From Eubacteriales bacterium (GTDB lineage: Bacteria > Bacillota > Clostridia > Oscillospirales > CAG-272): a stretch of 64,000 nucleotides of DNA. The DNA lies in contig JBGVHJ010000130.1 of assembly GCA_045122255.1 (NCBI GenBank), positions 2,208 through 66,207 on the forward strand, read 5' to 3'. A program made the translations under genes and the position numbers. Below the pieces are notes generated by a model. The model saw only the letters and a list, made by a program, of their open reading frames with translations. It was not told the DNA's origin and did no database searches. Shown piece by piece: positions 17,153 to 40,003 of this stretch (its first letter is position 1; each line of letters begins with the position of its first letter).

Positions 17153-19285
17153 TTATTCTGTCAGGACGTATATTACCACGTCGAGCTGCTGCGAGCCCTC
17201 TGCATAGCACGAAAACAGTGAGCTGGTTTTGTTATATTTAATAAGATTTCTGCTATACGAGCCTTGCGATTTGATCACCGCAGTGCCGTCGGAATTGACC
17301 GTAATGCTCCAGCTTCCGTTGGCATCAAGCGTCGCCTTTGTTCTGAGATAATTATTACTTGAGCTTGCCGCATACAGATACCCGGTGCCGTCTATGTTAA
17401 AAGCAAAGGTGCCGCTAACGGCTCCCGATTCCAACGTAATGATCTGAACCGCTTGAGACGGAGCTGCGAGGCGGTCATCTTCCCTTTCTATCGCGGTCTG
17501 TCCTCGGTTGTTTCCGTTCTGAGTGGTACTCATAGCAAAGCTATGATCCCTCGCGGCAATGATTATCCGATCACCGACCGAAAGCTGAGACACATCCGTA
17601 ACAAGCCTCCAAACGGGCTCGGTCGGCTCATCCTCTTCCCCGAGGTCGATGGCGGTTATCACCGTGTGTCCTTTTATCTGCAGGTCTCTTATCTCTTCAT
17701 CCGTATAAATATTTGTACTCGTGACACCGTCAACGGTCTCTCTGACCTCCCAAGCGAGGTTCTCACTATCCGACAAATCTATGTCAGGGGCAATATTTTT
17801 CAGAGGAGCGTCATTAATTTTATAGAGATCGGAGGCGGTCACTCCGTCAATAGTTCCGTTGGTAACTCTGACAAGGTATTCAGTTCCGATATTGCTTTCC
17901 TTCACTCCGTTAAGGACTACGTCCGCCTTTTTCGCATAATCGATCAAGGTATTATGCATGTGCTTCTCGGCAGGTGTCGTATTGGTTGAGACATAGAGTC
18001 GCGTGTAAACGTATTCGAGCACGCTATAGGTCTCCGTAACGTCTCCCACGGTGACGGTTATACGCTTCCCGATATTTTGCAGAGGCATGCCTTGTTCCGA
18101 TATCCATACCGGATATCCGTACACTGTTAATTGCTTCCCGTTCTCAACAAACGGTTTAATTTTCAATTGAATGTAGTTATTTTCACCATCAAAGCAGAAA
18201 ACCGAGGGCTTTTCGGGCGAAGCAAACATGAATTTAAGCGTGTCGCCGTAATAAATATTGTTGTAAAACGGTCTTTCGGTTTCAGGGAATTCAGGCGTGG
18301 GAGCATCGGGAATTTCTGCTCCTTCGCCACCTTCGTTACCCCCTTCTCCGCCACCCTGAGGAGGTGTGGGCAGCTCCCCGTCAAGGGCAGAAAGCGAGGG
18401 AGTTATCATGCCTTCAGGGACCTCTTTTTCATAAAGAAGCCAAGCAAGCTCGGGGTAGTCGATAAATACGTTTCGGTTGCCCTGAATGTTCTGGACCACC
18501 TCGTTTCTTCCCATTTCCCAGGTATCAACGGGGTCAAGCTCGCACCATTCAAGGAGAACGTCTACGCTTTGGAACACCTCGGTGATGCTGTCAGCACCCC
18601 AATCTTCGCCCCAGCGCACGTAAACGTAAAGGCATATTCTTGCAACGTCGCCCTTGACGTTATCAAGCGGCTCGAAATAATTAGAATTGTAGGTTCCACC
18701 AAGCACTCCTACAGCGGGATTGCTTCCGTACTTTTCACTCGGAGAATTTCCCGATTCGCCGTATTTTTTATTACTTCGGGAGCTATTCACCCCCGCGTCG
18801 GACGGGCGAACATGATGCAAGTCCGCTCCACCACCCGTGGTGTTGCCGCCGCCGAGGCTTTGAGGCCAAACGTGTTCCCTGTTCCAACCGTTCCACTGAT
18901 CCATAGTCGCCTGATAGGATGTGTAAAGCAGGGTCACCTTGCCATTGCCATTTTCGCAGTCGGTCACGTCCGCTTTATAGTGACAGTCATCGTAAGAGGA
19001 CACCTTTGAATGAGTATCTGTCATAAGAGAGTGAAGGGAGCTCTTCAACACGCTTGAAGACAACGTGATCAAAGTGTCAAAGGAATAGCTTCCAGTATAA
19101 TAGGAATATGCGCTCGTTCCGTCCAAGGAGGTGCACCACACGCCGCGCGTGCCGGAGTTGTATTCCTTCGAATAGGTCTGCACTTGAGCGGCGTCCGCCC
19201 ACATCGGAAGGTGAAATGCTGTAAAAATAACGCTCACGAATATTAAGAGTGCCGCAATTTTTGTTGCCATTCTTTTCGGTCGCAT
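17153..19285 (-). CDS. Secreted endonuclease I-family nuclease with a long C-terminal extension
   Basis: The motifs NREHVWPQSLGG, DLHHVRPSDAGVNSSRSNKKYG, KGDVARICLYV and GNRNVFIDYPELA match the Endonuclease_1 (EndA/Vvn/Bsn-like) pattern. The signal peptide is MATKIAALLIFVSVIFTAF. The start is set at ATG 19285 with an AGGAG RBS. The C-terminal domain (WRLVTDVSQLSVGDRIIIAA..WSITVNSDGTAVIK) is homologous to a domain in 19601..22414. Confidence 0.85.
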   Translation of the reverse strand: MRPKRMATKIAALLIFVSVIFTAFHLPMWADAAQVQTYSKEYNSGTRGVWCTSLDGTSAYSYYTGSYSFDTLITLSSSVLKSSLHSLMTDTHSKVSSYDDCHYKADVTDCENGNGKVTLLYTSYQATMDQWNGWNREHVWPQSLGGGNTTGGGADLHHVRPSDAGVNSSRSNKKYGESGNSPSEKYGSNPAVGVLGGTYNSNYFEPLDNVKGDVARICLYVYVRWGEDWGADSITEVFQSVDVLLEWCELDPVDTWEMGRNEVVQNIQGNRNVFIDYPELAWLLYEKEVPEGMITPSLSALDGELPTPPQGGGEGGNEGGEGAEIPDAPTPEFPETERPFYNNIYYGDTLKFMFASPEKPSVFCFDGENNYIQLKIKPFVENGKQLTVYGYPVWISEQGMPLQNIGKRITVTVGDVTETYSVLEYVYTRLYVSTNTTPAEKHMHNTLIDYAKKADVVLNGVKESNIGTEYLVRVTNGTIDGVTASDLYKINDAPLKNIAPDIDLSDSENLAWEVRETVDGVTSTNIYTDEEIRDLQIKGHTVITAIDLGEEDEPTEPVWRLVTDVSQLSVGDRIIIAARDHSFAMSTTQNGNNRGQTAIEREDDRLAAPSQAVQIITLESGAVSGTFAFNIDGTGYLYAASSSNNYLRTKATLDANGSWSITVNSDGTAVIKSQGSYSRNLIKYNKTSSLFSCYAEGSQQLDVVIYVLTE

Positions 19286-19600
19286 ACAAAATCTCCTTTT
19301 TATGTTTTTAAAGATAAAATCGTCTTCAAAAACAGTATAACACATAAAAAGTGGAAAGTAAAGTAATTTTTTTATTTTTATGTGTTGCCTGCGCAAAAAT
19401 CAGCATCAGCATTATTTCTCGCTTTTGCTTTAGTTTTTGGCACATTTTGAGCAATGCGATCTTATTTTGCAAAATAAACAAAATTATGTCCAAAAAACCC
19501 TGAAAATTTACTCGTTTTTCGTCGATTTTGCCAATTTACTTATATATTGGCTTATGTTATAATGATGCTTGTGGAAAAAACACAGAAAGGAAGAGAAAAC

Positions 19601-22414
19601 ATGAAACGTTTCCATTTAGCAGCTCTGTTTGCGATCATACTCGCAGTTGTCATCTTCTTGCCTTCCTGCGGCAATACCGAGACACCTGTGGTACCTGACG
19701 ATACAGAGTCCACAATCAACAGCGAGGTTCCCGAGGAGCCCGATAACAAGGAATCCGACGAAACCAGCGAAAATGCTTCCGAAGAAACAAGCTCTGAGGC
19801 ATCAACAGAAACAACCGAAAACACTACCGAGGAATCTTCCGAGGAGACCACCGAGGACGTAGCGTCTTCCGAGGAGACCACCGAGGAAACCACCGAGGAG
19901 ACCACCGAGGGTCACACTCACAACTACGAGGCTGTAGTAACCGCTCCTACTTGCACCGAGGCAGGTTACACCACCTACACCTGCGAGTGCGGCGACACCT
20001 ACAAGGGTGACGAGGTTGCGGCAAAGGGTCACACCTTCATCGACAGCAAGTGTGCTTGCGGCGAAGAGTACGTTGCAGTTCCCAGCGGCGACTGGATACT
20101 CGTAACCGAGCTCAAGGACGGCGACCGAGTTCTTATCGGCGCTCCCGCTTACGGCAAGCTTCTCTCCGCTCTCAAGGTTTCTGCAGGCTCCTTCTACAAC
20201 AAGGGCGTTGATTATTCCGCAGACAACTTTGCAAACGTAACCGACGACGAGATCTTCGTTGTTACCGTTAACGATGACGGCACCTACACCTTCACCGCAG
20301 TAACCGGCGACGTTCTCGCTCTTGCTGCAAGCTATTCCTCTCTTAACAAGGACGGCGAGCACAAGTCATGGGCACTCACCGACAGAAACGACGGAACATT
20401 CCTTTTGAAGAATACCGGACGTAACCTCTATCTTGAGTGGTACAACTCCAAGGGTAACTGGAGCACCTACTCCGCAGGTAACACCGCTGAGTACTACCTC
20501 TCCTTCTACGTAAAGAATGAAAACGCAGGCGCAGAGCACGTTCACAACCACATCACCAAGGTTGTAGCTCCTACCTGCACCGTTGACGGCTACACCGAGT
20601 ACACCTGTGCTTGTGGCGACACCTACAAGGCAGACGAGGTTAAGGCTTCCGGCACTCACAGCTATACGCCCGAAGTAACCGCTCCCACCTGCACCGAGGC
20701 AGGCTACACCACCTACACCTGCTCTTGCGGTGATAGCTACAAGGCAGACGAGGTTGTAGCAAAGGGCCACACCTTCGTTGAAGGTAAGTGCGAGTGCGGC
20801 GAAAAGGATCCCGATTACAAGCCTCCCGTCCCCGGCGGCGTGGCTGATTTTGACGCCATCGTGCTTCCCTCCACCAAGCCCAACGGCGACTCCTCCTACA
20901 CCGCAACTTACACTTCTCCCAACGGCTGGATCACAGCTAACTCTGCAATTCAGTGCGGAGGTCCCGCAGGATGCTCCAATCCTCAGTACGTTGTTGTAGG
21001 TCCCGACAACACCCACAAGGCAGTATGCCTTAACGGTAAGACAACCGCTCCCGGTAAGATCACATCCCCCACTCTCAATACCGGTATTTCCAAGCTCACT
21101 ATTCAGTACACCAAGATATTCACAGATACCGATCTTTCCGTAACCGTTACCATTACCGATGCGGCAGGTAACAAATACACTCACGTTATCGAAAAGCTTG
21201 GTATGGACAAGAACGAGAAATACGTTGTTTATACTGACGAATGGGTTCTCGAAACTCCCGTTTCCGGCGAATTCACCATCGAGATCGTAAACAACTGCCC
21301 TACCGGTCAAACCGGCAACAAGGACCGCTTCACCATTCTCGATCTTTCTTGGGAAGGCGTTCACACTCACAATTACACCGCAACCACCACCGCAACCTGC
21401 ACCGCTGCAGGTGTTACCACCTACACCTGTGAGTGCGGTGACACCTACACCGAGGATACAGCAGCGCTCGGTCACGTTGACGCAAACCTCGACGTCGAGT
21501 GCGACAGAGAGGGCTGCACCAGCAAGGTAGCTCCCAAGGCTGACTCCGTTCTTTCTACATATACCGCTAACTGCGTAGGCTCCAAGGTTTCTGTTTCCAG
21601 CTCCTACTACGTCGTTGGTACTATCGTTGAGGTTCTTGACCAGAAGAACGGTATCTTCCTCATCGACGACGGCACAGGCGAAAAGTTCTATTTCAGACTT
21701 CCCAAGAATGCCGATGGCGTTTCTCACGCAAGCTGGGAGATCAAGCTCGTGCTTGGCGATAAGGTTCAGGTTTACGGCAAGATCAACAAGTACAACTCCA
21801 ACACAGCTCCTAACGGTCAGTACTGGCCCGCAATGCAGTCTCCCGTTGCAACTCTTCTTGAGCAGCACACCCACGACTTCACCTTCAGCCCCGCAGATTG
21901 CTCCGAGCCCGCTCGTTGCGCTTGCGGACAGGGTACCGGTGAGCCTCGCGGTTGCATCGACGAAAACTCCGACAGCATTTGTGACGATTGCGGAAAGAAT
22001 ACCAAGTACAGCTATGAGTACGTTGAGATCAGAACCGATAACGGTAGCGGAGTTCATGATGCTACCGCACTGACCTACACCTGGAGCAGCGATAACTTCA
22101 GTGTGCAGGTAGCTAAGGCTGCCGGCGGTAACCTTTACGTTACCTCCAAGGATCACATGAGAGTTTATAAGAGTAATAACATCATTCTTACCAACAAGAA
22201 CGGTCTCGCTGTCAAGACGGTAACCGTTCATCTCACCAACGAAACTCAGATAGCTAACTTCGAAAAGTTCCTCACCGGATACACCTACACCACCGACGCC
22301 GAGAAATTTACGATCACATTTGAGGTAAGCGCATTTGAAGCTCTTACTCTCACCAACCCCAGCACCGGTTCCACCACCCAGATCAAGGGATTCGAGTTCG
22401 GCTACGAGAAGTAA
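19601..22414 (+). CDS. Large surface lipoprotein: acidic linker, four Cys-rich repeats, a domain shared with the nuclease, and an OB-fold-like module
   Basis: The lipobox is FLPSCG. The linker is E/T/S-rich. Four copies of about 40 aa match APTCT[EV][AD]GYT[TE]YTC.CGD[ST]YK. WILVTELKDGDRVLIGA..WALTDRNDGTFLLK is homologous to the nuclease C-terminus. The OB-like segment is YYVVGTIVEVLDQKNGIFLIDDGTGEKFYF..GDKVQVYGKINKYN. Confidence 0.8.
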   Translation: MKRFHLAALFAIILAVVIFLPSCGNTETPVVPDDTESTINSEVPEEPDNKESDETSENASEETSSEASTETTENTTEESSEETTEDVASSEETTEETTEETTEGHTHNYEAVVTAPTCTEAGYTTYTCECGDTYKGDEVAAKGHTFIDSKCACGEEYVAVPSGDWILVTELKDGDRVLIGAPAYGKLLSALKVSAGSFYNKGVDYSADNFANVTDDEIFVVTVNDDGTYTFTAVTGDVLALAASYSSLNKDGEHKSWALTDRNDGTFLLKNTGRNLYLEWYNSKGNWSTYSAGNTAEYYLSFYVKNENAGAEHVHNHITKVVAPTCTVDGYTEYTCACGDTYKADEVKASGTHSYTPEVTAPTCTEAGYTTYTCSCGDSYKADEVVAKGHTFVEGKCECGEKDPDYKPPVPGGVADFDAIVLPSTKPNGDSSYTATYTSPNGWITANSAIQCGGPAGCSNPQYVVVGPDNTHKAVCLNGKTTAPGKITSPTLNTGISKLTIQYTKIFTDTDLSVTVTITDAAGNKYTHVIEKLGMDKNEKYVVYTDEWVLETPVSGEFTIEIVNNCPTGQTGNKDRFTILDLSWEGVHTHNYTATTTATCTAAGVTTYTCECGDTYTEDTAALGHVDANLDVECDREGCTSKVAPKADSVLSTYTANCVGSKVSVSSSYYVVGTIVEVLDQKNGIFLIDDGTGEKFYFRLPKNADGVSHASWEIKLVLGDKVQVYGKINKYNSNTAPNGQYWPAMQSPVATLLEQHTHDFTFSPADCSEPARCACGQGTGEPRGCIDENSDSICDDCGKNTKYSYEYVEIRTDNGSGVHDATALTYTWSSDNFSVQVAKAAGGNLYVTSKDHMRVYKSNNIILTNKNGLAVKTVTVHLTNETQIANFEKFLTGYTYTTDAEKFTITFEVSAFEALTLTNPSTGSTTQIKGFEFGYEK

Positions 22415-22467
22415 TTCAACCGTTTAGCATTTAACACAGCGTTATACTAACGCCAAATAACTAAAAA

Positions 22468-22540
22468 GAGCATATCCGAAAAGCTCGACAATGCCAATTT
22501 GCAGGAGCATTGTCGAAGGATTCGGGTATGCTCGTTTTTG
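22468..22540 (+). terminator. Long stem-loop terminator after 19601..22414
   Basis: GAGCAUAUCCGAA..(inner CUCGACAAUGC/GCAUUGUCGA)..UUCGGGUAUGCUC is followed by GUUUUUGUUUG. Confidence 0.7.
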
Positions 22541-22812
22541 TTTGTGCCATTTTTTGCCCGCCGCCTCCCGTGCAGGCTCAAAACAAGGACAATTATTAGC
22601 CAAACATTGGAATTGAATACGGCAGCGCTTGGATATCAAGAAAATTATTTCATATTTAATTATTAAACATGCACAAATACAGGCGGCAAATTTGGACAAA
22701 TCGCCAAAAAAACGATTTTTCTCGAAAAAATTCAAAAAAATAGTTTCAATTTTTACAATTGTGTGGTATAATATATTAGTTGTAAGTATTATTTTGAGAA
22801 AGGAGAAAAAAC

Positions 22813-23664
22813 ATGATCAAGGACATTCAAAAAGCAGGCATGTGGAAGCGTATTTCCGCCGCTCTGTTGGATATCGTCGTGCTCATAATCATAGCCGAGG
22901 CATTCATTTTGCTTTTTTCATGGATGACCGGATTCAGTGACCATCTCAAGAAATACGACGCCTTGGAAAATGAGCTTGCAGACATAGCCGAGGAGTATTA
23001 CAAGGAATACGGCGTGGACGTCGAGCTCATAGCCAATACCGAGGAGTTCGGCAAGCTTTCAAAGGAAGAACAGGACGCTTACAAGGTCATTGTTGAAGCC
23101 GCAGACAAGGCATTTAAAAAAGACTCAAAGGTCATGGAGATATACTACGAGCAGAATGACGTTCTTTCTGACATCATCAGCCGCTTACTGATCGTTATAA
23201 CCTTCCCGATCCTCATTTCCTTCACAATACTTGAATTCGTGATACCTCTCATATTCAAAAACGGTCAGACACTTGGCAAAAAGGCTTTCGGTATAGCCGT
23301 TATGCGAGTCGACGGCATAAAGGTCACCCCCTTTATGATGTTTGCCAGAGGCATTCTCGGAAAGTGCACCTTCGGATTACTGGTCCCCATATATCTCATT
23401 ATTATGGTGATCTTCAGCATACTCGACATCAGGCTTGGAGCAATAGTTCTCCTTGCAATACTGATCGCTCAGATAGTTATTCTTTTCGCAACGAAAAATC
23501 GCACCCCCATCCACGATATGCTGGCTCAGACCGTAACCGTGGATATGTCCTCGCAGATGATATTCGACACTCCCGAGGAGAGAGACGAGTATTACAACAG
23601 GATCACCTCGGAAAGCGCCGCCGATTTCGGTCGCAGCTTCCACGACACAACGGTGTCAAAATAA
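22813..23664 (+). CDS. RDD family membrane protein
   Basis: It has multiple TM segments and the GQTLGKKAFGIAVMRVDG motif typical of RDD domains. A GGAGAAAAAAC RBS is present, and the promoter region has a TGGTATAAT extended -10. Confidence 0.75.
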   Translation: MIKDIQKAGMWKRISAALLDIVVLIIIAEAFILLFSWMTGFSDHLKKYDALENELADIAEEYYKEYGVDVELIANTEEFGKLSKEEQDAYKVIVEAADKAFKKDSKVMEIYYEQNDVLSDIISRLLIVITFPILISFTILEFVIPLIFKNGQTLGKKAFGIAVMRVDGIKVTPFMMFARGILGKCTFGLLVPIYLIIMVIFSILDIRLGAIVLLAILIAQIVILFATKNRTPIHDMLAQTVTVDMSSQMIFDTPEERDEYYNRITSESAADFGRSFHDTTVSK

Positions 23665-23724
23665 ATTCGGTTCCAATTAAATTTTGAACATAAAAAGCAA
23701 CAATACAGGAAGGATGACAAGCAA

Positions 23725-26837: not shown

Positions 26838-26856
26838 TGAAGGGAGGAACAGCAAA

Positions 26857-27903: not shown

Positions 27904-27965
27904 TCGCTTTTTCAGCAGAAGAAAAGGCTTAACAATAAGAAAAAAATTTTTTGGAGGACAAAAAC

Positions 27966-29492: not shown

Positions 29493-29529
29493 TCAATAAT
29501 TGAGGTCAAACAAACAGGTTAATATAATA

Positions 29530-30963: not shown

Positions 30964-30996
30964 TAATATAAAAATCAAAATTCATAAGGAGACATT

Positions 30997-33927
30997 ATGA
31001 AAAAACTAATTGCAATTGTTCTCGTTGCACTTATGTGCATTTCCGTTCTTGCGGCATGTACTCCCGCAGAACCCGAGACACCCGACACCCCCGAATCCTC
31101 CACTCCCGAGACCAACGAGTCCGAGCCCAATGAGGATACTTCCTCTGAGCCCGACGGCGAGGATACATCCTCTACTCCCAATGCTTCCGAGTACGATGTT
31201 GAGGCGGCTAAGGAGAACGTTAAGGTTCTTAACAATAACCTTCTTAAGAACCCCAGCACCGGTAAGGACTTCACCGTTACTCCCCAGGTTATGATCGCAG
31301 GTGTTGTTTACACCGTTACCTGGACCGTTAACACCGACAAGGTTACCGTTGACGTAAACGACGAAGAGAAAACCGTTACCATCAATGTTGACGAGGATGC
31401 TCTTGAGGAACTCGCATACGTCCTCACCGCAACCATTACCGCTCCCGATGGAACTACCGCTGTTCTCGAGTTCAACCTCACAGTTCCTAAATTCAAGTTC
31501 ACTACCTTTGCTGAGTACGCTGCAGCTGAAAAGGGTACCTTTGTAACTGTACAGGGTATCGTTACCGGTGTATTCTCCAAGACTACCGGCTCCGCTGCTA
31601 ACGGCCTTTACATTCAGGATCTGAATAACGAGGGCGGTTACTACGTATACAACCTCGCTGATGATCCCAACGGCACTATCCTTCCCGGTATGACCGTTGT
31701 AGTTCGTGGTGACACAGATCTTTACAACGGCACCTACGAGATCGTAAATGCTTCCGTTCAGGTTACTGACGAGACTATCAAGACCGTAGAGCCCATCGAC
31801 TACACCAACCTTCTTGCAACAGCAGAAAAGCTCAGCGATACAGCTCTCGTTGCAAAGCAGGCGCTTCTCGTTACCGTTAAGGGTGTTACCATCCTTGAGG
31901 CTGGCGACAACGGCTACTACTACTTCCAGGCAGGAGCTCACAAGGTTTACCTCAGAATCTCCAGCTCTAACAACGCTACTACCTCCGAGGCTCTCGAAGC
32001 TATCAAGGCTGCTCACGGAGCTAACTACGGTAACGTTGCAGACGTTACCGGTGTAATCTCTCTTTACAACGGCAACTTCTACCTCTCCCCCATCTCTGCT
32101 GATGCATTCAGCAATATCACTGTTCCCGAGAGAACCGACGCTGAGAAGGCTGCTCTCGAGCTTTCAGGTCTTAAGCTCGACGCTTCCGCGTCCTCCAACA
32201 AGGTTATCGAGCTCCCCGCAGTTGGAACTACTTATGAAAATGTAACCTTCACTTGGGCAACCACCGATACTACAGGTGCTGCTGTTATTGCTGACGGTAA
32301 GCTCACTCTCACTATTCCCGATGCTGAGCTTGTTGTAACTATCACCGTTACCGCAACCTGCGGCGAAGCAACTGATACCAAGGAATTCACCATCAAGCTT
32401 TCCAAGACCATCACCCCTCTCAAGGACGCTATTGAGATCGGTGCGGCTAAGGATCACAACACCTACACCGAGGACAAGTACATCGTTGCAGGTGTCATCA
32501 CCGAAATTTATAACGAACAGTACGGCAATATGTACATCGTTGACGAGCTTGGCAACAAGTTCACCGTTTACGGCGTATACATTGAAGGCAAGAAGTACGG
32601 CGACTTCACCGGTGCTAAGCCCGTTGCAGGCGACTACATCGTAGTTATGGGTGCTCTCGGTCAGTACAACGGCACCGCTCAGATGAAGAACGCTGACCTC
32701 GTTTCCTTCACTACTCCCACCAGCATTACCGACGCGGTTGCTCTCGGCGCTGCTAAGGATCACAACACCTACACCGAAGATAAGTACGTTATTTCCGGTG
32801 AGATCACTGAAGTTCAGAGCGATAAGTACGGTAACGTAGTTATCAAGGACGCAGCAGGCAACTCTATTCTCGTATACGGTCTCTACAGTGCTAACGGCGC
32901 TACCAGATACGACGCTATGGAGACAAAGCCCGCAGTTGGCGACACCATCGTCGTTCTCGGTATTCTCGGTCAGTACAATGGCACCGCTCAGATGAAGAAC
33001 GGCTGGCTCATCGGCTACACCGCAGGTAATGCTGGTGGTAACGAGGGCGGCAACGAAGGCGGCAATGAAGGCGGCAATGAAGGTACTACTACTCCTTCCG
33101 ACAAGATCACTACCATTGCAGGTGCTCTTGCAGGAACTGTAGGTGCAGAGGTTGAGCTTATCGGTACCGTTTCTGAATTCTATCAGGGTTGGAATACCCA
33201 GTACAACAACTGCTCTCCTTACATCGTTGACGATGCAGGCAACAAGATCATTGTTTTCCGTTGCAAGCTCGACGTTAAGATCGGCGACGTAATCAAGGTT
33301 GTTGGTGTGCTTGGTGCATACAACAATGTAAATCAGGTTGCAGAGGGCTCTACCGTTACTCTTGTAACCGCTCACGTGTGCAGCGATTTCACCGCAGCTG
33401 ACTGCCTCAACGCAGCAGTTTGCAAGGTGTGCGGAAAGGCTAACGGCGAGGCTCTCGGTCACGCTTACACCGACGGTGCTTGCACAAGATGTGGCGCAAC
33501 TCAGACCACCGGAACCGTTACCGTAAGCAAGACTATTGCTTCCCTTATCACCGAGCTTGGTTGGACAGGCAGCACTACAAAGCAGACCTTCACTCTTGAC
33601 GATAACGTAACCGTTAAGATCAACGGTGGAAACAACACCGGTAAGGCATACAACGGTGACCATATCCGTATCTATGCTACCGATTCTCCCGCAGGAACCA
33701 TAACCATTTCTGTTCCCGAAGGCTATGAGCTTGTTTCCATTAAGATCTCCGCTCAGACTGGAACCTATGCATTCCTTTATCTTGGCGAAGGCACAACCGA
33801 TATTTGTAATGTAACCACCGCTGTTTCCGGATCTTCCGTAGTTCTTAATTCTGTTAAGAACGGATCCGACGGCAAGCAGGTACGTGTTACCGCAATCGAG
33901 GTTGTTTACCAGCCCGTAGCAGGCTAA
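30997..33927 (+). CDS. Large surface lipoprotein with at least four OB-fold-like modules, a Cys-rich segment and a C-terminal domain shared with 19601..22414
   Basis: The lipobox is VLAACT. The repeated pattern is [VI]xG[VEI][IV]T..[LV]YG..GDx[IV]VVxGxLGQYNGTAQMKN (two nearly identical copies), plus GTFVTVQGIVTGVF..LYIQD..MTVVVRGDTDLYNGTYEI and AEVELIGTVSEF..GDVIKVVGVLGAYNNVNQV. These resemble the OB modules of the YhcR/ExeM-type extracellular nucleases as I remember them. Confidence 0.8.
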   Translation: MKKLIAIVLVALMCISVLAACTPAEPETPDTPESSTPETNESEPNEDTSSEPDGEDTSSTPNASEYDVEAAKENVKVLNNNLLKNPSTGKDFTVTPQVMIAGVVYTVTWTVNTDKVTVDVNDEEKTVTINVDEDALEELAYVLTATITAPDGTTAVLEFNLTVPKFKFTTFAEYAAAEKGTFVTVQGIVTGVFSKTTGSAANGLYIQDLNNEGGYYVYNLADDPNGTILPGMTVVVRGDTDLYNGTYEIVNASVQVTDETIKTVEPIDYTNLLATAEKLSDTALVAKQALLVTVKGVTILEAGDNGYYYFQAGAHKVYLRISSSNNATTSEALEAIKAAHGANYGNVADVTGVISLYNGNFYLSPISADAFSNITVPERTDAEKAALELSGLKLDASASSNKVIELPAVGTTYENVTFTWATTDTTGAAVIADGKLTLTIPDAELVVTITVTATCGEATDTKEFTIKLSKTITPLKDAIEIGAAKDHNTYTEDKYIVAGVITEIYNEQYGNMYIVDELGNKFTVYGVYIEGKKYGDFTGAKPVAGDYIVVMGALGQYNGTAQMKNADLVSFTTPTSITDAVALGAAKDHNTYTEDKYVISGEITEVQSDKYGNVVIKDAAGNSILVYGLYSANGATRYDAMETKPAVGDTIVVLGILGQYNGTAQMKNGWLIGYTAGNAGGNEGGNEGGNEGGNEGTTTPSDKITTIAGALAGTVGAEVELIGTVSEFYQGWNTQYNNCSPYIVDDAGNKIIVFRCKLDVKIGDVIKVVGVLGAYNNVNQVAEGSTVTLVTAHVCSDFTAADCLNAAVCKVCGKANGEALGHAYTDGACTRCGATQTTGTVTVSKTIASLITELGWTGSTTKQTFTLDDNVTVKINGGNNTGKAYNGDHIRIYATDSPAGTITISVPEGYELVSIKISAQTGTYAFLYLGEGTTDICNVTTAVSGSSVVLNSVKNGSDGKQVRVTAIEVVYQPVAG
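33034..33081 (+). repeat. Four tandem 12-bp units encoding (GGNE)4 inside 30997..33927
   Basis: The units are ggtggtaacgag ggcggcaacgaa ggcggcaatgaa ggcggcaatgaa, read directly. This is an in-frame low-complexity linker. Confidence 0.9.
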
Positions 33928-33947
33928 TATCATTTAGTCAAATTTTT

Positions 33948-33975
33948 CCACCCCGCCACGGCGGGGTGGTTTTTT
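33948..33975 (+). terminator. Intrinsic terminator after 30997..33927
   Basis: CCACCCCGC-CACG-GCGGGGUGG followed by UUUUUU. Confidence 0.85.
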
Positions 33976-34017: not shown

Positions 34018-34046
34018 TTGCAAAAGTCAGAAAAATATAGTATAAT
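34018..34046 (+). promoter_or_regulatory. Promoter of the barnase-like RNase gene (TTGCAA-17-TATAAT)
   Basis: TTGCAA is at 34018..34023, followed by a 17-nt spacer and TATAAT at 34041..34046. Confidence 0.6.
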
Positions 34047-34078
34047 ATATCGTAATTTTGATTTTGAAAGGCAAATAT

Positions 34079-35269
34079 ATGAAATTCAACTACAGAATAC
34101 TATCGTTTTTACTGGCTCTGTTGCTGACTATCGCAATATTTACCGGTTGCAACACCACGGGCAATGAAAATCTTTCCGACGTGCCCTCAGAAAGCGAAAG
34201 CTCCGAGATAGAATCAAGCGAGCACGGCTCCGGCGAGGAAAGTGAAGGTATCGATTCGTCCGATACGGTGTCAGAAAGCGAAGAAAGTGAAGAGAGCGAC
34301 GAAACCTCAGAAATCACGGCAACGAGCGGCGAAGAGACCACAAGCGAGATCGAAAGCTCCGAAGAAAGCGAAGTTCTTCCCCCTCTCGAAATACACGAGG
34401 CGTTGGGTTCCCCTGCAGGCTATCTCCCCGCAGGAAGCTACGAGGAGGCTATCGAGAGAAGCAAAAATAATCAGCTTTCGGGATACGATTTCGTGCCCGA
34501 TCAGGCTCCGATCCTTTCCGAATACCGCCCGATGCAGGACGGCAAGTACGTAAAGAACACCAACTCGTACTACGCGGACTACAACACCTACGTAGTCGTA
34601 GACGCTTACGGCAGAGAGGTCTTCCGCATTTATCGCGGTGGCGCGTACATAACTCTTGAAGAGGTTGCCGCATACGTTTACGCCTTCGGCACATATCCCG
34701 CAAATCACACGTACACAAAAACCACCAGCGTTTCGGGTAACGCATGGGGCAAATATCTGCGCTCCAATCACTCGAAATTCAGCGGCAACACATCCAAATA
34801 TCCCTACGAGCCCGAGCTTCCCCGAATCAGCGGTTGCGGTGGAGATCTCCAATACTGGGAAATGGATATCGGAACCACGGGCACAGACTGTGATCCCTCT
34901 TATTCTGCCGTTATATACAATAACGGCACAAAGATCACTCGCGGTGCCGCGAGAATAGTTTACACCTGGAACGACCTTAACGGAAACGGCATGACCGATC
35001 CCACCGACATCGTTTTTGTCTTCTACACCTACAACCACTACAACGATTTTCAGGAATATCTGAATTATTACGGCGGTTGGGGCGAAATGTTCGGAAACAT
35101 CACGGGCGGAGGCAAGATCTCCAGCAAGTACGATTACAATCCCACGCCGTATGTACCCGTTGTAAACGGTTCGATAGAGGCAAGATTTGAAGAGTCCGCC
35201 CCCTCAGAGTGCATCATCCTGCTCGCCTGGATCGACCGCAGAGCATTTGAGCTTATTACAAACGCATAA
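34079..35269 (+). CDS. Surface lipoprotein with a barnase/binase-like (N1/T1 superfamily) ribonuclease domain
   Basis: The lipobox is IFTGCN, followed by an acidic S/E linker. The core LEEVAAYVYAFGTYPANHTYTK..GNAWGKYL..YWEMDIGT..RGAARIVYTWN..VFYTYNHYNDFQEY parallels the barnase pattern (VADYLQTYHKLPDNYITK..EADINY..R..RILYS..YKTTDHYQTF) as I remember it. Confidence 0.65.
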   Translation: MKFNYRILSFLLALLLTIAIFTGCNTTGNENLSDVPSESESSEIESSEHGSGEESEGIDSSDTVSESEESEESDETSEITATSGEETTSEIESSEESEVLPPLEIHEALGSPAGYLPAGSYEEAIERSKNNQLSGYDFVPDQAPILSEYRPMQDGKYVKNTNSYYADYNTYVVVDAYGREVFRIYRGGAYITLEEVAAYVYAFGTYPANHTYTKTTSVSGNAWGKYLRSNHSKFSGNTSKYPYEPELPRISGCGGDLQYWEMDIGTTGTDCDPSYSAVIYNNGTKITRGAARIVYTWNDLNGNGMTDPTDIVFVFYTYNHYNDFQEYLNYYGGWGEMFGNITGGGKISSKYDYNPTPYVPVVNGSIEARFEESAPSECIILLAWIDRRAFELITNA

Positions 35270-35273
35270 TATA

Positions 35274-35308
35274 AAAAACCGACGAAAGCTTTGCTTTCGT
35301 CGGTTTTT
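35274..35308. terminator. Bidirectional intrinsic terminator between the convergent RNase and surE genes
   Basis: AAAAAACCGACGAAAGC-UUU-GCUUUCGUCGGUUUUU has A/T runs on both sides. Confidence 0.85.
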
Positions 35309-35311
35309 AGT

Positions 35312-36034
35312 TTATTTATAAAGATCCTTAAGCTTAGCATACGCCGCAAGATCGGTCTTGTTTGCGGTAAGAGGAGAGATAGATACGTAACCGCCTCTTA
35401 TAGCGTTTATATCCACCGCAAGGTTGCTGGGATCGCCCTTGACCGGCTCACCGACCTGCTTGTACATGTCGTTTCCGCAACAAACGAAGGAATCACTGTA
35501 GAACATTCCGCCCTGATGGGTGATCCTGATCCCCTTGCTCTTTTCGGTGGGGATATTCACGTTAAGAAGCTCGGTGTGCTTGAGTAGCTCCTTCTCTTCG
35601 ATAAAGGAATATACCTCGTCAAGCTCTGCTACGGCATTGTCAAATCCGTCCTTGTCGGTGGAAAAGGCGATCGCCTTAAAGCCCATTCTCGAAGCCTCAA
35701 ATATAGCTCCGATAGTGCCTGAATATGCGATGTCGTCTCCGAGATTATAGCCGTAATTGATTCCCGAAAGTATCAGATCATACTCTCTTTCAAGCCCAAG
35801 CACTCCGAAACGGACACAGTCGGCAGGAGTTGAATCCATCGCCCAAGCCTCAATGCCGTCGAACTCGACGCGCTTGATCTCTACGGGATGAAAGAAATCG
35901 ATCGACTGGCTCTTTCCGCTCTGCTCTACCTTGGGCGCCACCACGGTGACCTCACCCAGCTTCTCTGCCCAATGAGCAAGGGCTCTCAAGGACTTGGATG
36001 CAATACCGTCATCGTTAGTCACAAGTATTCTCAT
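35312..36034 (-). CDS. surE: 5'/3'-nucleotidase SurE
   Basis: MRILVTNDDGIASKSLRALA..VVAPKVEQSGKSQSI..GINYGYNLGDDIAYSGTIGAIFEA. The ATG at 36034 overlaps the upstream stop (ATGA). Confidence 0.9.
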   Translation of the reverse strand: MRILVTNDDGIASKSLRALAHWAEKLGEVTVVAPKVEQSGKSQSIDFFHPVEIKRVEFDGIEAWAMDSTPADCVRFGVLGLEREYDLILSGINYGYNLGDDIAYSGTIGAIFEASRMGFKAIAFSTDKDGFDNAVAELDEVYSFIEEKELLKHTELLNVNIPTEKSKGIRITHQGGMFYSDSFVCCGNDMYKQVGEPVKGDPSNLAVDINAIRGGYVSISPLTANKTDLAAYAKLKDLYK

Positions 36035-37014
36035 ATCCAGCCCTCGTTGTTTTCCTTGTAGTCCTTCAGTCTCGCGTCGCACTCCTCAAGAATAGCCTTG
36101 ATCTCCTTCTTGGAGTTGAGCGTAGCGCCTGCCGCGCAAGCGTGACCGCCGCCGCGATATCTTTCAGCGATCTCGCTGATAGTTACAAATCTCGAGCGCA
36201 GACGAACTCTTATGTTCTTCTTTTCTGTGTTTTCAATGAAAGCCAACCACATAAGGCTCCCTCTGATCGACTCGAGGTGCGAAACGCACGCACTTGCCTG
36301 CTCGCCCGAAAGTCCGAACTTCTTCTGCATAGCCTTGTCAACGATGATATACGCCACACCGTTTTTCGTAACCTTCATCTTTTTATAGACGTATGACTGG
36401 AACTTCAGCTCCTCGAAATCCTTGATATAGAGATTGGCATAAAGCGTATCGGTATCAATGCCGGCATCGAGAAGCATACCCGCATATCTCATGGTATCTC
36501 CGTCCACCGAGCGGAAGCGGAAGCGTCCCGAGTCGGTGACCATACCCACGTAAAGGTAGGTTGCCGCCTCCTTCGTAAGCTGAAGCTCGTCGCGGAAGGT
36601 GCTCCAGAATTCAACCACCATCTCGCAGGTAGAGGACTTCTCCTCCTCTATCCAGCAGTAGTCTCCGTAGGGCTTGTGGTCGATATGGTGGTCGATCTTA
36701 GCAATCTCACGGCAATTCTTGTATTTCTGATTTGAAATTCTGTCCTCGCTTCCGGTATCAAGCACAAGCGCCAGCGCATCGGCATAAAGCTCGTCCGCAA
36801 TAGGCTCGTCCTCACCGCCAAGGAAGCTGAGATAATCGGAATAATCGTTGTTAAGAAGATATATCTCCTTTTCAGGGAAGGACGCGCGGAGTATTTCGCG
36901 CATACCCTTGGTAGAACCGATAGCGTCTCCGTCGGGTCTGAAATGACGGAATATGATAATTCTGTTATATTCTTTTATCTTTTGGAGTATCTTCTCCATA
37001 TTTTCTCTGTTCAT
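36031..37014 (-). CDS. DHH/DHHA1 family phosphoesterase, NrnA-like (oligoribonuclease/pAp phosphatase)
   Basis: The motifs are FRHFRPDGDAIGST, LVLDTG, KIDHHIDHK and GGGHACAAG. Confidence 0.85.
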   Translation of the reverse strand: MNRENMEKILQKIKEYNRIIIFRHFRPDGDAIGSTKGMREILRASFPEKEIYLLNNDYSDYLSFLGGEDEPIADELYADALALVLDTGSEDRISNQKYKNCREIAKIDHHIDHKPYGDYCWIEEEKSSTCEMVVEFWSTFRDELQLTKEAATYLYVGMVTDSGRFRFRSVDGDTMRYAGMLLDAGIDTDTLYANLYIKDFEELKFQSYVYKKMKVTKNGVAYIIVDKAMQKKFGLSGEQASACVSHLESIRGSLMWLAFIENTEKKNIRVRLRSRFVTISEIAERYRGGGHACAAGATLNSKKEIKAILEECDARLKDYKENNEGWI

Positions 37015-37952
37015 ATCTGTTCCTCTGCAATTCTATTAAGATCTTCAAGCAGCATCATAGCCTCGTCGTAATTCTTCAGGGTGCATCCGCTTGCCTTTTC
37101 GTGACCGCCGCCGCCGTACTTTACCGCGGTGCGGTTGATATTGTAACGGCTGGAGCGAAGCTCGCAAAGAATGCCGTCCTCAGTCTCGGTAAAGTTGACC
37201 CAGATATCGACTCCGCGGATCTCGCCCATAACGCCGACCATACCGCGTGAAATTGTGAAGGTATCAACTCCGCTCTCGCGCGCCTCATCTGCGGTGGTAT
37301 ATATATATGCTACGTTTTTATCCGTAAATTTAACCTTAAGCACGAACTGTGCGCGCAAACGGATATATGAAAAATCGTCCGCATAGAGGTTTCGGTATAT
37401 TTCCGACGTATCTATTCCCGTCTCCAGAAGGATCGCCGCACGTCGCAGGGTGTCGGGCTTAGTGGAATCATAGCGGAAGCGTCCGGAATCGGTGACCATA
37501 CCGGTGTAGATCGCCGCAGCCGCCTCGGTCGAGATCTGCCAACCCGCCTCCACAGCGAGGGAGACGATAAGTCCGCAGCAGCTTTCATAGCTTGTGTCGG
37601 TCACCTCAACGTTTGCGATCTTTTCACAGAATATGTGATGGTCTATTCTCGCGGTCTCTGCGGCAAGATTATATCTCGTATCGCTTATAAGCGCGCTTGC
37701 AGAGGTATCGAGAATGATGGCGAGCGCACCTGCGTAATCCTCATCAAGGACGGTGTCGGGGGTGCTATCCTTAACAAAGGCATATCTTCCCGCTCCATCG
37801 CCCACGGCAAGCACGCGCTTGTGGGGATAATTCTCGGCGATCAGCTTTTTAAGTCCGATCTGGCTTCCGATAGCGTCGCCGTCGGGCTTGGTGTGTCTGT
37901 GGATAATTACCGTGTCGTATTTCTCGATCAAAGAAATAATAGATTCAAACAT
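37011..37952 (-). CDS. DHH/DHHA1 family phosphoesterase, NrnA-like (second paralog)
   Basis: The motifs are HRHTKPDGDAIGSQ, IILDTS, RIDHHIF and GGGHEKASG. There is a 4-nt overlap with the downstream paralog. Confidence 0.85.
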   Translation of the reverse strand: MFESIISLIEKYDTVIIHRHTKPDGDAIGSQIGLKKLIAENYPHKRVLAVGDGAGRYAFVKDSTPDTVLDEDYAGALAIILDTSASALISDTRYNLAAETARIDHHIFCEKIANVEVTDTSYESCCGLIVSLAVEAGWQISTEAAAAIYTGMVTDSGRFRYDSTKPDTLRRAAILLETGIDTSEIYRNLYADDFSYIRLRAQFVLKVKFTDKNVAYIYTTADEARESGVDTFTISRGMVGVMGEIRGVDIWVNFTETEDGILCELRSSRYNINRTAVKYGGGGHEKASGCTLKNYDEAMMLLEDLNRIAEEQI

Positions 37953-37964
37953 TTCCGTCTCTCC

Positions 37965-39167
37965 TTACATATCAAAATAGCCTTTGTATTCAACGCGCAG
38001 ATCGCTGTTCGGGAACAGGTAGGCGTGAAGATCGATGAGATAATCGTCGGTCATGCTGGCGATATAATCAACAACGATCTGGTTAGGCTCTGAGCTTTCA
38101 TAGGCTGTCTCACGCTTATAGTGAGCAGAATTGATGTAATCAATGTGATGCGAGAAGATGGGCGAGGTGTGATTATTCGCCTTGAGATCGTCAAGCAGCT
38201 GACCGTATATCTCCGCCATCATAGGTCGCACGGTGGTATTAAGTCCCGCAAGCTTCGCGGCATTGTTATATATCAGCTCGTAATTTTCCTTTTGAGACTT
38301 CTTGAGCGCATTGAAGTGCTTGGCATCGAGCTTGATATGATCCTTGCCGTAGCTGTTCTCTATTATATTGACGACAAGATTGTTTATGATCTCCGCATTG
38401 ATCGAGCCGATCTCCTCGTTATAGAATACGCTTTCTTCAACTATCTTCGCGCGGGACGCGTCCTGGCGGTCCTTTCCGAGGTAAGCGATGACGTCGGAAA
38501 TGCGCACAACGACGCCCTCAAGTGTATTGGGCATCAGCTTCACGGTGAATTCCTTACTCTCGTAGCATTTTTCAAGGATCTTGTCAAACTCGTCAAAGCC
38601 GCTTATAGGCTCAACGTGATATTCGTCGCAAAGCAGCTCACCGTTATGCGTAAGTATGCCGCCCAGAGTCTGAAGGCTTATGTTATAAGGGAAAATACCG
38701 TCAAGAACTCGAACCGACTGAACGTTGTGATAAAAATGTCTTCCGGTATGGTTGAAATATAGCTCGTCGAGGTATTTTTCGCCATTGTGAGCAAAGGGTG
38801 GGTGACCGATATCGTGACCCAGCGCGATAGCCTCGATAAGATCGAGGTTGAGATGCAGAGCCGCGCCAATGGTGCGCGCGATTCGGGAAACGAGCTGAAC
38901 GTGCAGACTGCGACGGGTTATATCGTCATTTTTGCAAAGAGAAAATACCTGAGTCTTGTCAGCGTATCGGTTGTAGAACGGGCAATGCATTATTTTATCG
39001 ATATCGTGAACAAAGGTGGGGCGCCAGACCGTGGCGGTATCCTTAGAAAGATTATGGCGACGAATCACCTTATCGTCAGGGAAAGAAACGTCTTCATAGA
39101 CTCCGCTTTCCTTGGCAAGGCGGATAGCCTCTGTCGTAGCATTTGAAAGCTTTTCGTATTTCGGCAT
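37965..39167 (-). CDS. HD domain phosphohydrolase (dGTPase-like dNTP triphosphohydrolase family)
   Basis: RSLHVQLVSRIARTIG..IALGHDIGHPPFAHNGE..VRISDVIAYLGKD matches the dGTPase-like HD pattern. Confidence 0.8.
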   Translation of the reverse strand: MPKYEKLSNATTEAIRLAKESGVYEDVSFPDDKVIRRHNLSKDTATVWRPTFVHDIDKIMHCPFYNRYADKTQVFSLCKNDDITRRSLHVQLVSRIARTIGAALHLNLDLIEAIALGHDIGHPPFAHNGEKYLDELYFNHTGRHFYHNVQSVRVLDGIFPYNISLQTLGGILTHNGELLCDEYHVEPISGFDEFDKILEKCYESKEFTVKLMPNTLEGVVVRISDVIAYLGKDRQDASRAKIVEESVFYNEEIGSINAEIINNLVVNIIENSYGKDHIKLDAKHFNALKKSQKENYELIYNNAAKLAGLNTTVRPMMAEIYGQLLDDLKANNHTSPIFSHHIDYINSAHYKRETAYESSEPNQIVVDYIASMTDDYLIDLHAYLFPNSDLRVEYKGYFDM

Positions 39168-39418
39168 GGTTTATCCTCCGTTAATATTTGAAAGCCTCTG
39201 ATTTTCCGCAAAATTCCATTTGCGGTCTTTCGGGGCGGGATTTTCGTGAAATTATTCTGTATTGCAATAAATCTCCTTTTACATTATAACACAACTTTCG
39301 TCAAATTTCAATATTAAATTATATTTTTCCTTTTTTTCTCTTGCCCTTGAGACGAAAATATGGTATACTTATACATAGAGAATTATTATGCCCCCATCGG
39401 GGTCGAAAGGATATGTAA

Positions 39419-40003
39419 ATGGCAAAGCTTTATTTTAAATACGGTGCGATGGGCTCGTCCAAAACGGCAAATGCGCTGATCACAAAATTCAATTATGAGG
39501 AGCGCGGAATGAAGGTCTGGCTTATCAAGCCCGCCCTTGACGATCGCAACGGAGTCACCAAGGTCCACTCAAGAATAGGCATTGAGGCTGACGCCTTCGT
39601 GGTTTCTCCCGAGACCGATCTTATCTGCGAATTTGAAAATCGCAAGGACATTCACGCCATTATTGCCGACGAGTGTCAGTTTTTCACCACCGAGCAGATC
39701 GATCAGCTTCGCCGCATAGTAGATGAATACGACATTCCCGTGCTCTGCTTCGGACTGAGAACCGACTTTCTTACCCGACTTTTCGACGGAAGCAAAAGGC
39801 TTTTCGAGGTTGCCGACTCGATCAACGAGGTAAAAACCATCTGCGCCTGCGGAAAAAAGGCGATCGTTAACGCGCGTATCGACAGTGAAGGCAGGGTGCT
39901 CGTGGAGGGCGGACAAATACTTATCGGCGGCAACGACGCATACGTTGCTATGTGCCATAGCTGTTGGAAAAGAGCAGCCGCGAAATATACAAAACCCGAA
40001 TAA
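39419..40003 (+). CDS. tdk: thymidine kinase
   Basis: It has the P-loop YGAMGSSKTANAL, IIADECQFF and a C-terminal zinc ribbon (CACGKKA..CHSCW). Confidence 0.92.
   Translation: MAKLYFKYGAMGSSKTANALITKFNYEERGMKVWLIKPALDDRNGVTKVHSRIGIEADAFVVSPETDLICEFENRKDIHAIIADECQFFTTEQIDQLRRIVDEYDIPVLCFGLRTDFLTRLFDGSKRLFEVADSINEVKTICACGKKAIVNARIDSEGRVLVEGGQILIGGNDAYVAMCHSCWKRAAAKYTKPE

Follow-up and report, generated by a model that had tools for sequence, protein, structure and literature searches.

We examined a 64,000-nt stretch of a Eubacteriales genome (assembly GCA_045122255.1, contig JBGVHJ010000130.1, positions 2,208 to 66,207 of the forward strand; hereafter the window), in which a sugar-type ATP-binding cassette (ABC) importer is encoded together with a nuclease lipoprotein and a surface protein of a nucleic-acid-binding family. 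This module very probably serves the uptake of nucleic-acid breakdown products. A description of positions 17153-40003 made earlier from the letters alone (here called the sequence-only reading) had proposed a nucleic-acid utilisation locus, with import through a CUT1 ABC system and degradation finished in the cytoplasm by NrnA- and SurE-type enzymes, and that proposal is supported both by synteny in related genomes and by the phosphodiester-binding relatives of the solute-binding protein (SBP). The conserved unit is smaller than the span that had been flagged. It consists of RDD, ABC, SBP and SNase genes, frequently followed by a gene for an OB-type lipoprotein (RDD-ABC-SBP-SNase(-OB)), and is often linked to a usually convergent operon that encodes a pair of NrnA-like enzymes, SurE and an HD protein. 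That the module is, in the full form set out below, a nucleic-acid scavenging system of uncultured gut and rumen Clostridia is in our judgement probable. We propose only tentatively that what is transported would be a di- or oligonucleotide still carrying phosphate, and not a nucleoside or a sugar. It is a shade more speculative that the SBP family would be a dedicated importer of phosphorylated di- and short oligonucleotides, taken up with their phosphodiesters intact and dismantled inside by the paired NrnA-like enzymes and SurE.

Parts of the window were assigned from the open reading frame (ORF) listing and from hidden Markov model scans with Pfam, NCBIfam and PADLOC models. The main transcription unit lies on the plus strand and opens with an RDD-family membrane protein (22813-23664; Pfam RDD E 4e-13). 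This is followed by an ABC ATPase of the UgpC/MalK type (CUT1; 23725-24825; ABC_tran E 2e-36), a MalF/UgpA-like permease (24825-26837; BPD_transp_1 over residues 448-666 only), a UgpE/MalG-like permease (26857-27903; BPD_transp_1, with UgpE and MalG as best NCBIfam models), a family-1 SBP lipoprotein that is the predicted specificity determinant (27951-29492; SBP_bac_8 E 2e-37, SBP_bac_1 E 1e-23), an SNase-type nuclease lipoprotein (29500-30963; Pfam SNase E 5.5e-9) and, as last gene, a 976-aa surface lipoprotein with repeated OB-fold modules (30997-33927; weak PF01336 and aBig_2 matches). The whole block (22813-33927) is tightly packed, with intergenic gaps of 0-60 nt. A single strong extended -10 promoter, TGTGGTATAAT, could be read about 40 nt upstream of the RDD gene, which has a good ribosome-binding site, and an intrinsic terminator with a 9-bp GC-rich stem followed by T6 closes the unit (33948-33969, plus strand). 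With one promoter and one terminator, the seven genes from RDD to OB are predicted to form one operon. For six proteins of the locus, whose coordinates are given here as in the ORF listing, the coding part was set more narrowly: SBP 27966-29492, SNase 29530-30963, 403-aa lipoprotein 34079-35269, SurE 35312-36034, Endonuclease I 17153-19285 and 955-aa lipoprotein 19601-22414. The sequence-only reading had named the RDD protein, the complete importer with its family-1 SBP lipoprotein, and the SNase-type lipoprotein, and the Pfam and NCBIfam matches, together with the lipobox of the last, bear it out. Lipoboxes (L-x-x-C) are visible in the SBP, the SNase protein, the 976-aa lipoprotein and two further lipoproteins of the locus (955 and 403 aa, described below).

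Conservation of this arrangement was assessed in related genomes. A species scan, with one genome per species, returned 481 SBP relatives, and the best 80 of these were studied; all 80 came from gut or rumen Clostridia metagenome-assembled genomes (MAGs) labelled Oscillospiraceae, Faecousia, Christensenellaceae or Eubacteriales. The 80 species-representative genomes and 4 contigs made up a close set of 84 loci, whose ORFs were searched with the window proteins by phmmer. A divergent branch of 79 loci was obtained from a metagenome scan with 8 seed SBPs; its SBPs are approximately 31-60% identical to P0253, an SBP itself 36% identical to that of the window. Further relatives were drawn from SBP representatives at 50% clustering.

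The SNase gene stood directly after the SBP gene in 84/84 close loci (75/75 when only those with at least 1.5 kb of downstream sequence were counted) and in 59/65 informative loci of the divergent branch. Loci L085-L087, whose SBPs are 36-37% identical to the window's, again had the SNase next. These counts show that the genes cluster beyond chance. They also show that the ABC genes travel with the nuclease, and with OB proteins and the DHH/DHHA1 pair, and not with glycoside hydrolases, none of which recurred near the module in the more than 160 loci. As single-operon adjacency holds down to about 35% SBP identity, which is hard to explain otherwise, we regard the SBP and the SNase as probably coupled in function. 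The RDD gene preceded the ATPase gene in every close locus that extended 5 kb or more upstream (59/59) and in 35/44 divergent loci, and it was often repeated in tandem (2-3 copies). An OB-type lipoprotein followed the SNase in 40 of the 52 close loci with enough downstream sequence. The DHH/DHHA1 pair was nearby in 34/52 close loci with at least 8 kb downstream, and it kept its adjacency despite a flipped orientation in L029, L055, L072, L111 and L112. SurE and the HD protein were near the module in 32/84 and 21/84 close loci, respectively.

Besides further OB/aBig_2 (Ig-like) surface proteins, clustering of the remaining ORFs gave as other recurrent neighbours a PHP protein, a 5'-3' exonuclease and an OB protein that weakly matches EndoU. 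Near the module, neither a secreted phosphatase nor a secreted nucleotidase recurred in the more than 160 loci, and no glycerophosphodiesterase (GlpQ/UgpQ) recurred in the loci. Among the divergent relatives from the 50% clustering, one SBP was followed by an aBig_2 protein and another lay amid nucleotide-metabolism genes. In the range L092-L118 the SBP and SNase genes are each tandemly duplicated and RDD is present in two or three tandem copies, which suggests sub-functionalisation, for example for DNA versus RNA products. L055, L069 and L083 come from MAGs labelled Sphaerochaetaceae, Bacteroides or Spirochaetales and have SBPs 63-70% identical to Clostridia ones; mis-binning or mislabelling is probably the reason, rather than lateral transfer.

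The window SBP has more than 7000 homologues, of which the top 120 are at least 64% identical to it. When a profile of the family was compared with the PDB, the Thermus thermophilus dinucleotide (U3G)-binding protein, a family-1 SBP able to hold a dinucleotide (7C0F series), came first with 84 bits (E 4e-23). E. coli UgpB was second with 62 bits, and every sugar SBP scored 46 bits or less. Foldseek with an AlphaFold2 model of the SBP returned the U3G-bound dinucleotide-binding protein as all of the top 25 matches (E 3e-22, TM 0.8 on the target), followed by UgpB, and all matches were cluster-D SBPs. By sequence and by fold, the closest solved relatives of the SBP bind phosphodiesters (a dinucleotide; glycerophosphodiesters) and not oligosaccharides. 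Against the UgpB equivalog model NF008211 the SBP reached 67.3 bits (cut-off 411), with the N-terminal third alone aligned. A weak match to the NCBIfam mycoplasma lipoprotein model lipo_P68 was also obtained (E 1.4e-8).

The 7C0F series (Chandravanshi et al., FEBS J 2021, pmid 33599038) contains the point mutants Y56F, F79A, N81A, S127A, Y224A, T240A, Y246A and Q274A. In an 82-sequence alignment the mutated positions correspond to Y124, Y147, D149, S217, Y319, S340, H346 and Q378 of the window protein; position 346, H in the window, is Y in 51/81 family members. Compared with the family consensus (Y, Y, D, S, Y, S, Y, Q), five of the eight positions are identical and three conservative, against a background identity of 29%, and all are strongly conserved within the family. 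This pattern suggests a putative dinucleotide-type ligand site in the SBP family.

The translocator gave a similar picture. UgpC was the best curated NCBIfam model for the ATPase (339 bits; equivalog cut-off 432), GlcV and MalK were also among the top models, and weak OB_MalK and CysA_C matches were found at its C-terminus, as in a MalK/UgpC-type regulatory domain. The two BPD_transp_1 permeases fit the MalF/UgpA and MalG/UgpE types in both Pfam and NCBIfam. All Ugp equivalog cut-offs were missed by the importer proteins. With a MalK/UgpC-type ATPase, two permeases and a family-1 (cluster D) SBP, the importer is, by its predicted components, a CUT1 system (TC 3.A.1.1), and the Pfam and NCBIfam scans found no Bmp or CUT2 signature in any protein of the locus. 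The MalF/UgpA-like permease contains an extracytoplasmic insertion of about 370 aa after the first transmembrane segment and before the conserved core (24930-26030), with an acidic low-complexity stretch. Its orthologues have a median length of 316 aa; few exceed 480 aa, and a handful have a long insertion (490-939 aa). The insertion had no Pfam match and no similarity to the other surface proteins with which it was compared (the Endonuclease I tail and the 955-aa lipoprotein).

The SNase domain scored 36.9 bits against a Pfam gathering score of 21, and across 79 orthologues neither its motifs DGDT and (N/D)TPE nor the catalytic Arg vary. At the position equivalent to Asp40, a Ca ligand of staphylococcal nuclease, 70/79 orthologues have Asn and 9/79 have Asp (VNTPE in the window, codons 29884-29898). 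The Asn may point to a changed metal preference; the SNase homologue of Mycoplasma agalactiae is Mg-dependent as reported. A conserved, beta-rich C-terminal extension of about 250 aa carries a weak OB signal (tRNA_anti_2, E 0.008).

The sequence-only reading had described two lipoproteins of roughly 950 aa, both packed with OB-like modules. This was correct for the 976-aa protein and not for its 955-aa counterpart, which had no Pfam match and consists mostly of Cys-rich repeats, a single module being alignable with OB proteins from elsewhere in the set of loci. PF01336 is sub-threshold in the 976-aa protein (23.3 bits, threshold 27) and was detected in 40/55 of its positional homologues (best E 6.7e-20); aBig_2 was detected in 22 of the 55. 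The 976-aa lipoprotein can be firmly predicted to belong to the nucleic-acid-binding OB-fold family (PF01336) and not to be a carbohydrate-binding module, in keeping with what had been expected of the OB modules. The C-terminal domains of the two large lipoproteins showed no significant similarity (E 0.31).

Convergent with the RDD-to-OB operon in the window is a minus-strand operon with a near-consensus promoter-like site at 39311-39283. It begins with an HD-domain dGTPase-like triphosphohydrolase (37965-39167; HD and HD_assoc) and continues with two tandem NrnA-like DHH/DHHA1 phosphoesterases (37011-37952 and 36031-37014; DHH and DHHA1 domains) and the 5'/3'-nucleotidase SurE (35312-36082; Pfam SurE E 6.5e-50). 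A thymidine kinase gene, tdk, lies beyond it on the plus strand (39419-40003; Pfam TK E 4.5e-43). These had been recognised in the sequence-only reading. SurE and Tdk scored above curated cut-offs (TIGR00087, 169.7 bits against 135.1; NF003300, 246 bits against 195), and the other assignments agree by domain content with curated scores below cut-off. NrnA was the best model for both DHH/DHHA1 proteins over their full length (247 and 237 bits; equivalog cut-off 350), and the HD protein reached 123 bits with TIGR01353 (cut-off 152), all dGTPase models of that NCBIfam scan remaining below cut-off. NrnA-type DHH enzymes degrade oligonucleotides of 2-5 nt and also act as pAp phosphatases; SurE has 5'/3'-nucleotidase activity, deoxynucleoside triphosphates (dNTP) are the substrates of Dgt enzymes, which hydrolyse them, and Tdk salvages thymidine.

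The sequence-only reading knew of no CUT1 importer dedicated to nucleic-acid products. This view did not survive comparison with published systems, as proposals for mycoplasmas and for Izemoplasmatales precede ours and a dinucleotide-bound family-1 SBP is in the PDB. In mycoplasmas, SNase lipoproteins (MAG_5040 of M. agalactiae, Mhp379 of M. hyopneumoniae, MPN133 of M. pneumoniae, and MHO_0730) are encoded in operons with a sugar-type ABC importer and an SBP lipoprotein, and import of nucleic-acid precursors has been proposed for them (PMC3585158, PMC9740415). In M. agalactiae (MAG_5030-5070) the SBP-like lipoprotein P80 (MAG_5030) is in the same transcript, and for MPN133 the ABC operon lies downstream (PMC3585158, PMC9740415). 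By gene content the window is alike, as SNase lipoprotein, SBP lipoprotein and sugar-type ABC translocator again share one operon. The gene order differs, however, being SBP-SNase-ATPase-permeases in mycoplasmas and RDD-ATPase-permeases-SBP-SNase-OB in the window; moreover, no RDD, OB lipoprotein or linked NrnA/SurE operon is described for the mycoplasma operons, whose hosts are wall-less pathogens. We found no determination of the transporter substrate in the cited literature on these SNase-ABC operons. As a link to them, the mycoplasma lipoprotein P68 (mhp390) was considered and rejected, since it is outside the mhp379 operon.

The 'DNA-degradation loci' of Izemoplasmatales and their relatives combine ABC transporters with phosphohydrolases, NrnA, 3'-5' nucleases and several secreted nucleases, among them a thermonuclease, a DNase/RNase endonuclease and the DNA-degradation protein EddB (PMC8289736, PMC8397711, PMC10470597). 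SBP homologues in other genomes are also found beside nucleases (Wasmund et al. 2021, PMC8289736), and such loci were induced by DNA/RNA in cultures of Xianfuyuplasma coldseepsis zrk13 and Hujiaoplasma nucleasis zrk29 (PMC8397711, PMC10470597). Compared by gene content, the window is similar in that its secreted nucleases lie together with 3'-5' nucleases, with phosphohydrolases and with an ABC transporter. In contrast, the Izemoplasmatales loci have a Pst transporter and a large DNA-binding nuclease/lamin-tail protein, and neither Pst nor an LTD domain was present at 14-44 kb of the window or among the recurrent neighbours; RDD and OB-fold lipoproteins are not described for these loci, and the hosts are marine wall-less relatives of Bacilli. 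The nucleoside ABC importers with a Bmp/PnrA-type SBP and a CUT2 translocator (RnsBACD, NupABC-BmpA, mycoplasma P48) share the theme of salvaging nucleic-acid components but belong to another SBP fold family and another translocator family; the nucleoside binder P48 of mycoplasmas is of the Bmp type (PMC12892991). The concept of nuclease-fed ABC scavenging is thus already published, as a proposal, for mycoplasmas and Izemoplasma.

In the mechanism that we propose for the Clostridia module, OB-fold lipoproteins would capture DNA or RNA outside the cell and keep it at the surface, as their domain family implies, and the tethered SNase would cut the captured nucleic acid, perhaps with the addition of a secreted Endonuclease I in the lineage of the window. 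The products of SNase are 3'-phosphorylated mono-, di- and oligonucleotides, and with its catalytic residues conserved the window enzyme would be expected to release the same. The SBP would then bind a small phosphodiester-containing product, most likely a di- or short oligonucleotide or a 3'-nucleotide, and the Ugp-like translocator would import it. In the cytoplasm, by the known activities of their families, the two NrnA-like enzymes would hydrolyse short oligonucleotides, SurE would strip 3' or 5' phosphates, the dGTPase-like HD enzyme would trim any excess of dNTP, and kinases such as Tdk would return nucleosides to salvage. We suggest the binding and import steps because the SBP-SNase linkage is invariant, the solved relatives of the SBP bind phosphodiesters, no secreted phosphatase recurs and the cytoplasmic enzymes are of the short-oligonucleotide type. 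Phosphorylated fragments would be the most economical substrate, given the absence of a recurrent extracellular phosphatase, the linked oligonucleotide-specific enzyme pair and an SBP that resembles phosphodiester binders.

As the main alternative, the importer might carry dephosphorylated products, that is nucleosides or deoxyribose/ribose, with phosphates removed outside by enzymes encoded elsewhere and NrnA and SurE as housekeeping neighbours. CUT1 systems are classically sugar importers, the permeases and ATPase resemble MalFGK/UgpAEC, and Tdk is adjacent in the window and in a few other loci. Wasmund et al. inferred nucleoside/nucleobase transport for the Izemoplasmatales ABC systems, with dephosphorylation required before import (PMC8289736). 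In L089 (1-11495) an orphan SBP homologue, 37% identical to the window SBP and with no adjacent permeases, has as neighbours DeoC, a xanthine/uracil permease and a fusion of NT5C with guanylate kinase, and in L090 the neighbouring operon carries a Metallophos/5'-nucleotidase gene. We nevertheless consider this explanation unlikely, as a secreted phosphatase or nucleotidase was not recurrent in the more than 160 loci, the SBP is closest to phosphodiester binders and not to ribose, nucleoside (Bmp/CUT2) or sugar binders, and the tandem NrnA-like pair, from a family acting on 2-5-nt oligonucleotides, is the commonest cytoplasmic neighbour and stays linked through rearrangements. Retaining the phosphodiester but abandoning the nucleic acid, the system could instead be a general Ugp-like importer of organophosphates and phosphodiesters for phosphate scavenging, taking up glycerophosphodiesters or teichoic-acid fragments with the SNase as one of several feeding phosphodiesterases. 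UgpBAEC is itself a CUT1 system whose substrates are phosphodiesters/phosphomonoesters; three of its four transporter proteins in the window have a Ugp model (UgpC, UgpE or UgpB) as their best curated match, and UgpB is the second-best structural match of the SBP. The Thermus protein reportedly also binds glycerophosphocholine. This idea appears improbable, since the Ugp equivalog cut-offs are widely missed (67 against 411 bits for the SBP and 339 against 432 for the ATPase), GlpQ/UgpQ does not recur, and every recurrent neighbour is nucleic-acid related, and the genomic context is one of nucleases rather than glycerophosphodiesterases.

It is less probable still that the nucleases serve other ends, such as biofilm or extracellular DNA remodelling, escape from DNA traps, exclusion of foreign DNA or, through the dGTPase, depletion of dNTP as a defence against phages, and that an unrelated sugar transporter merely shares their operon. 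Mycoplasma surface SNase homologues are mainly discussed as factors in virulence and evasion of neutrophil extracellular traps, the HD protein matches the PADLOC dGTPase model over its full length (E 5e-42), and the SNase domain matches the PADLOC candidate family SNc+LTD (E 3e-10). The same dGTPase model also matches housekeeping Dgt, though, and the curated anti-phage dGTPase model gave 88 bits against a cut-off of 400. PADLOC returned only these generic dGTPase and SNase-domain matches and no other defence genes, the carriers are gut commensal MAGs, and the adjacency of SBP and SNase in a single operon, conserved down to about 35% SBP identity, would not be expected of unrelated functions.

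Several observations weigh against scavenging by import of phosphorylated fragments. To our knowledge, all CUT1 systems of proven substrate carry sugars, polyols or glycerophosphodiesters, and a nearby Tdk would fit nucleoside import equally well. Overall identity between the SBP and the Thermus dinucleotide-binding protein is only about 23-29%, and with a pLDDT of 76.6 the AlphaFold2 model of the SBP is of intermediate quality. The enrichment of identities at the eight mutated positions is modest (binomial P about 0.05), and contact of these residues with the ligand is an assumption taken from the titles of the PDB entries. The Thermus protein is moreover an orphan SBP that adjoins glpX and ribonucleotide reductase genes, not permeases or a nuclease, and its homologues were found only in Thermus and Meiothermus; with no link to a nuclease, it therefore informs ligand chemistry and not the ancestry of the system. 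Because the related loci come mostly from one broad MAG clade, the synteny may be partly inherited and not independently maintained. The cytoplasmic operon is missing from about one third of the loci with enough flanking sequence. Finally, no operator-like 12-mer was common to the four promoter regions, which share only ribosome-binding-site and -10 look-alikes.

The remaining genes of the span that had been flagged differ from the core in their distribution. The earlier delimitation was right for the RDD-to-OB core and the frequently linked cytoplasmic operon and too generous beyond them: Endonuclease I was found in 0/84 close loci, the 955-aa lipoprotein gave partial matches in only 2/84, Tdk was near the module in 4/84 and also in L090, and the 403-aa lipoprotein occupied the same slot in a minority (7/84, and L090). 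The first three of these are local additions and not conserved parts, although an Endonuclease I homologue does follow the SNase in two divergent loci (L114 and L120).

The Endonuclease I gene (17153-19396, minus strand) encodes a protein with a plain signal peptide and no lipobox and a C-terminal extension of about 430 aa. The motifs quoted for it in the sequence-only reading are present in the translation, and the assignment as an exported nuclease was confirmed (Endonuclease_1 E 2.2e-36, 126 bits against a gathering score of 25); the E. coli EndA equivalog gave 30 bits against 372. Its C-terminal 140 aa or so (17153-17650, minus strand) resemble residues 183-312 of the 955-aa lipoprotein (20093-20482, plus strand; BLASTP E 2e-4, 25% identity), and this common module may be a substrate-binding or anchoring domain. 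The gene for the 955-aa lipoprotein (19547-22414, plus strand) has its own terminator, a hairpin and T-run 3' of the stop codon. In the protein a Cys-rich unit of about 40 aa (H-x-H-x-Y ... C-T-x-x-G-Y-T-x-Y-x-C-x-C-G-D-x-Y) is repeated, with five or six copies in all, a similar Cys-rich segment is found near the C-terminus of the OB lipoprotein (33300-33500), and Pfam CPxCG_zf was found in six positional homologues. A tyrosine recombinase gene (16107-16946, minus strand; Phage_integrase and SAM-like N-terminal domain) adjoins the Endonuclease I gene, so that the Endonuclease I/955-aa pair may be a later insertion.

The 403-aa lipoprotein (34058-35269, plus strand) forms a separate transcription unit with its own promoter-like site (34018-34046), and a bidirectional terminator (35274-35308; 16-bp stem, T-runs on both strands) divides the convergent units. 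It had been taken for a barnase-like RNase. This identification could not be confirmed: the Pfam Ribonuclease match (E 0.0036) scored 18.2 bits, below the gathering score of 24; the family profile had no match in the PDB; comparison with barnase, binase and RNase Sa gave 2% probability with hhalign and 6.5 bits with hmmsearch; and Foldseek with the AlphaFold2 model (pLDDT 62.5) gave nothing better than E=1. Two short co-linear motif matches are a lead only. As no barnase test gave significant support, we left this lipoprotein out of the nuclease count. It represents a conserved family of 2416 proteins that have no Pfam domain and are named 'hypothetical', with many invariant residues (for example ITLEEVAAYVYAFG, YPYEP, GCGG, GTTGTDCD, ITRGAARIVY, FYTYNHYNDF and GGWGE). 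In L090 (6913-9116) this slot, with the OB protein on one side and SurE on the other, is occupied by two adjacent paralogues.

The flanks of the locus are unrelated, with the tyrosine recombinase on one side and a NagA/NagB-type sugar cluster beyond 41.5 kb on the other. Between Tdk and the NagA/NagB-type operon lies a 454-aa ORF with no Pfam or NCBIfam match (40068-41432, minus strand), which is overlapped by a long antisense ORF. No Rfam family, riboswitches included, was found anywhere in the window.

What is added here to the mycoplasma and Izemoplasma systems is their logic in the form of a sharply defined and very widespread module in walled gut Clostridia, which is set apart by its conserved company of RDD, OB lipoproteins and two tandem NrnA-like enzymes with SurE and a Dgt-like protein; in addition, the resemblance of its SBP to a dinucleotide-binding structure makes the substrate hypothesis more precise. 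At least 481 species-level genomes, all from uncultured Clostridia of gut and rumen, have a relative of the module's SBP, which also has thousands of metagenomic homologues, and existing annotation of the module proteins goes no further than 'sugar ABC transporter' or 'hypothetical'. If the proposed function is correct, these bacteria would have a dedicated nutrient niche in the nucleic acid that comes from food, from host cells, from lysis by phages and from dead microbes, and a large block of supposed sugar transporters would have to be re-annotated. The SBP also offers a tractable way of asking whether bacteria import oligonucleotides as such. Should oligonucleotide import prove true, it would contradict the usual assumption that nucleotides must first lose their phosphates outside the cell, hundreds of species of gut Clostridia would share this widespread route, and it would provide the first physiological role for nucleotide-binding family-1 SBPs and for their conserved RDD partner.

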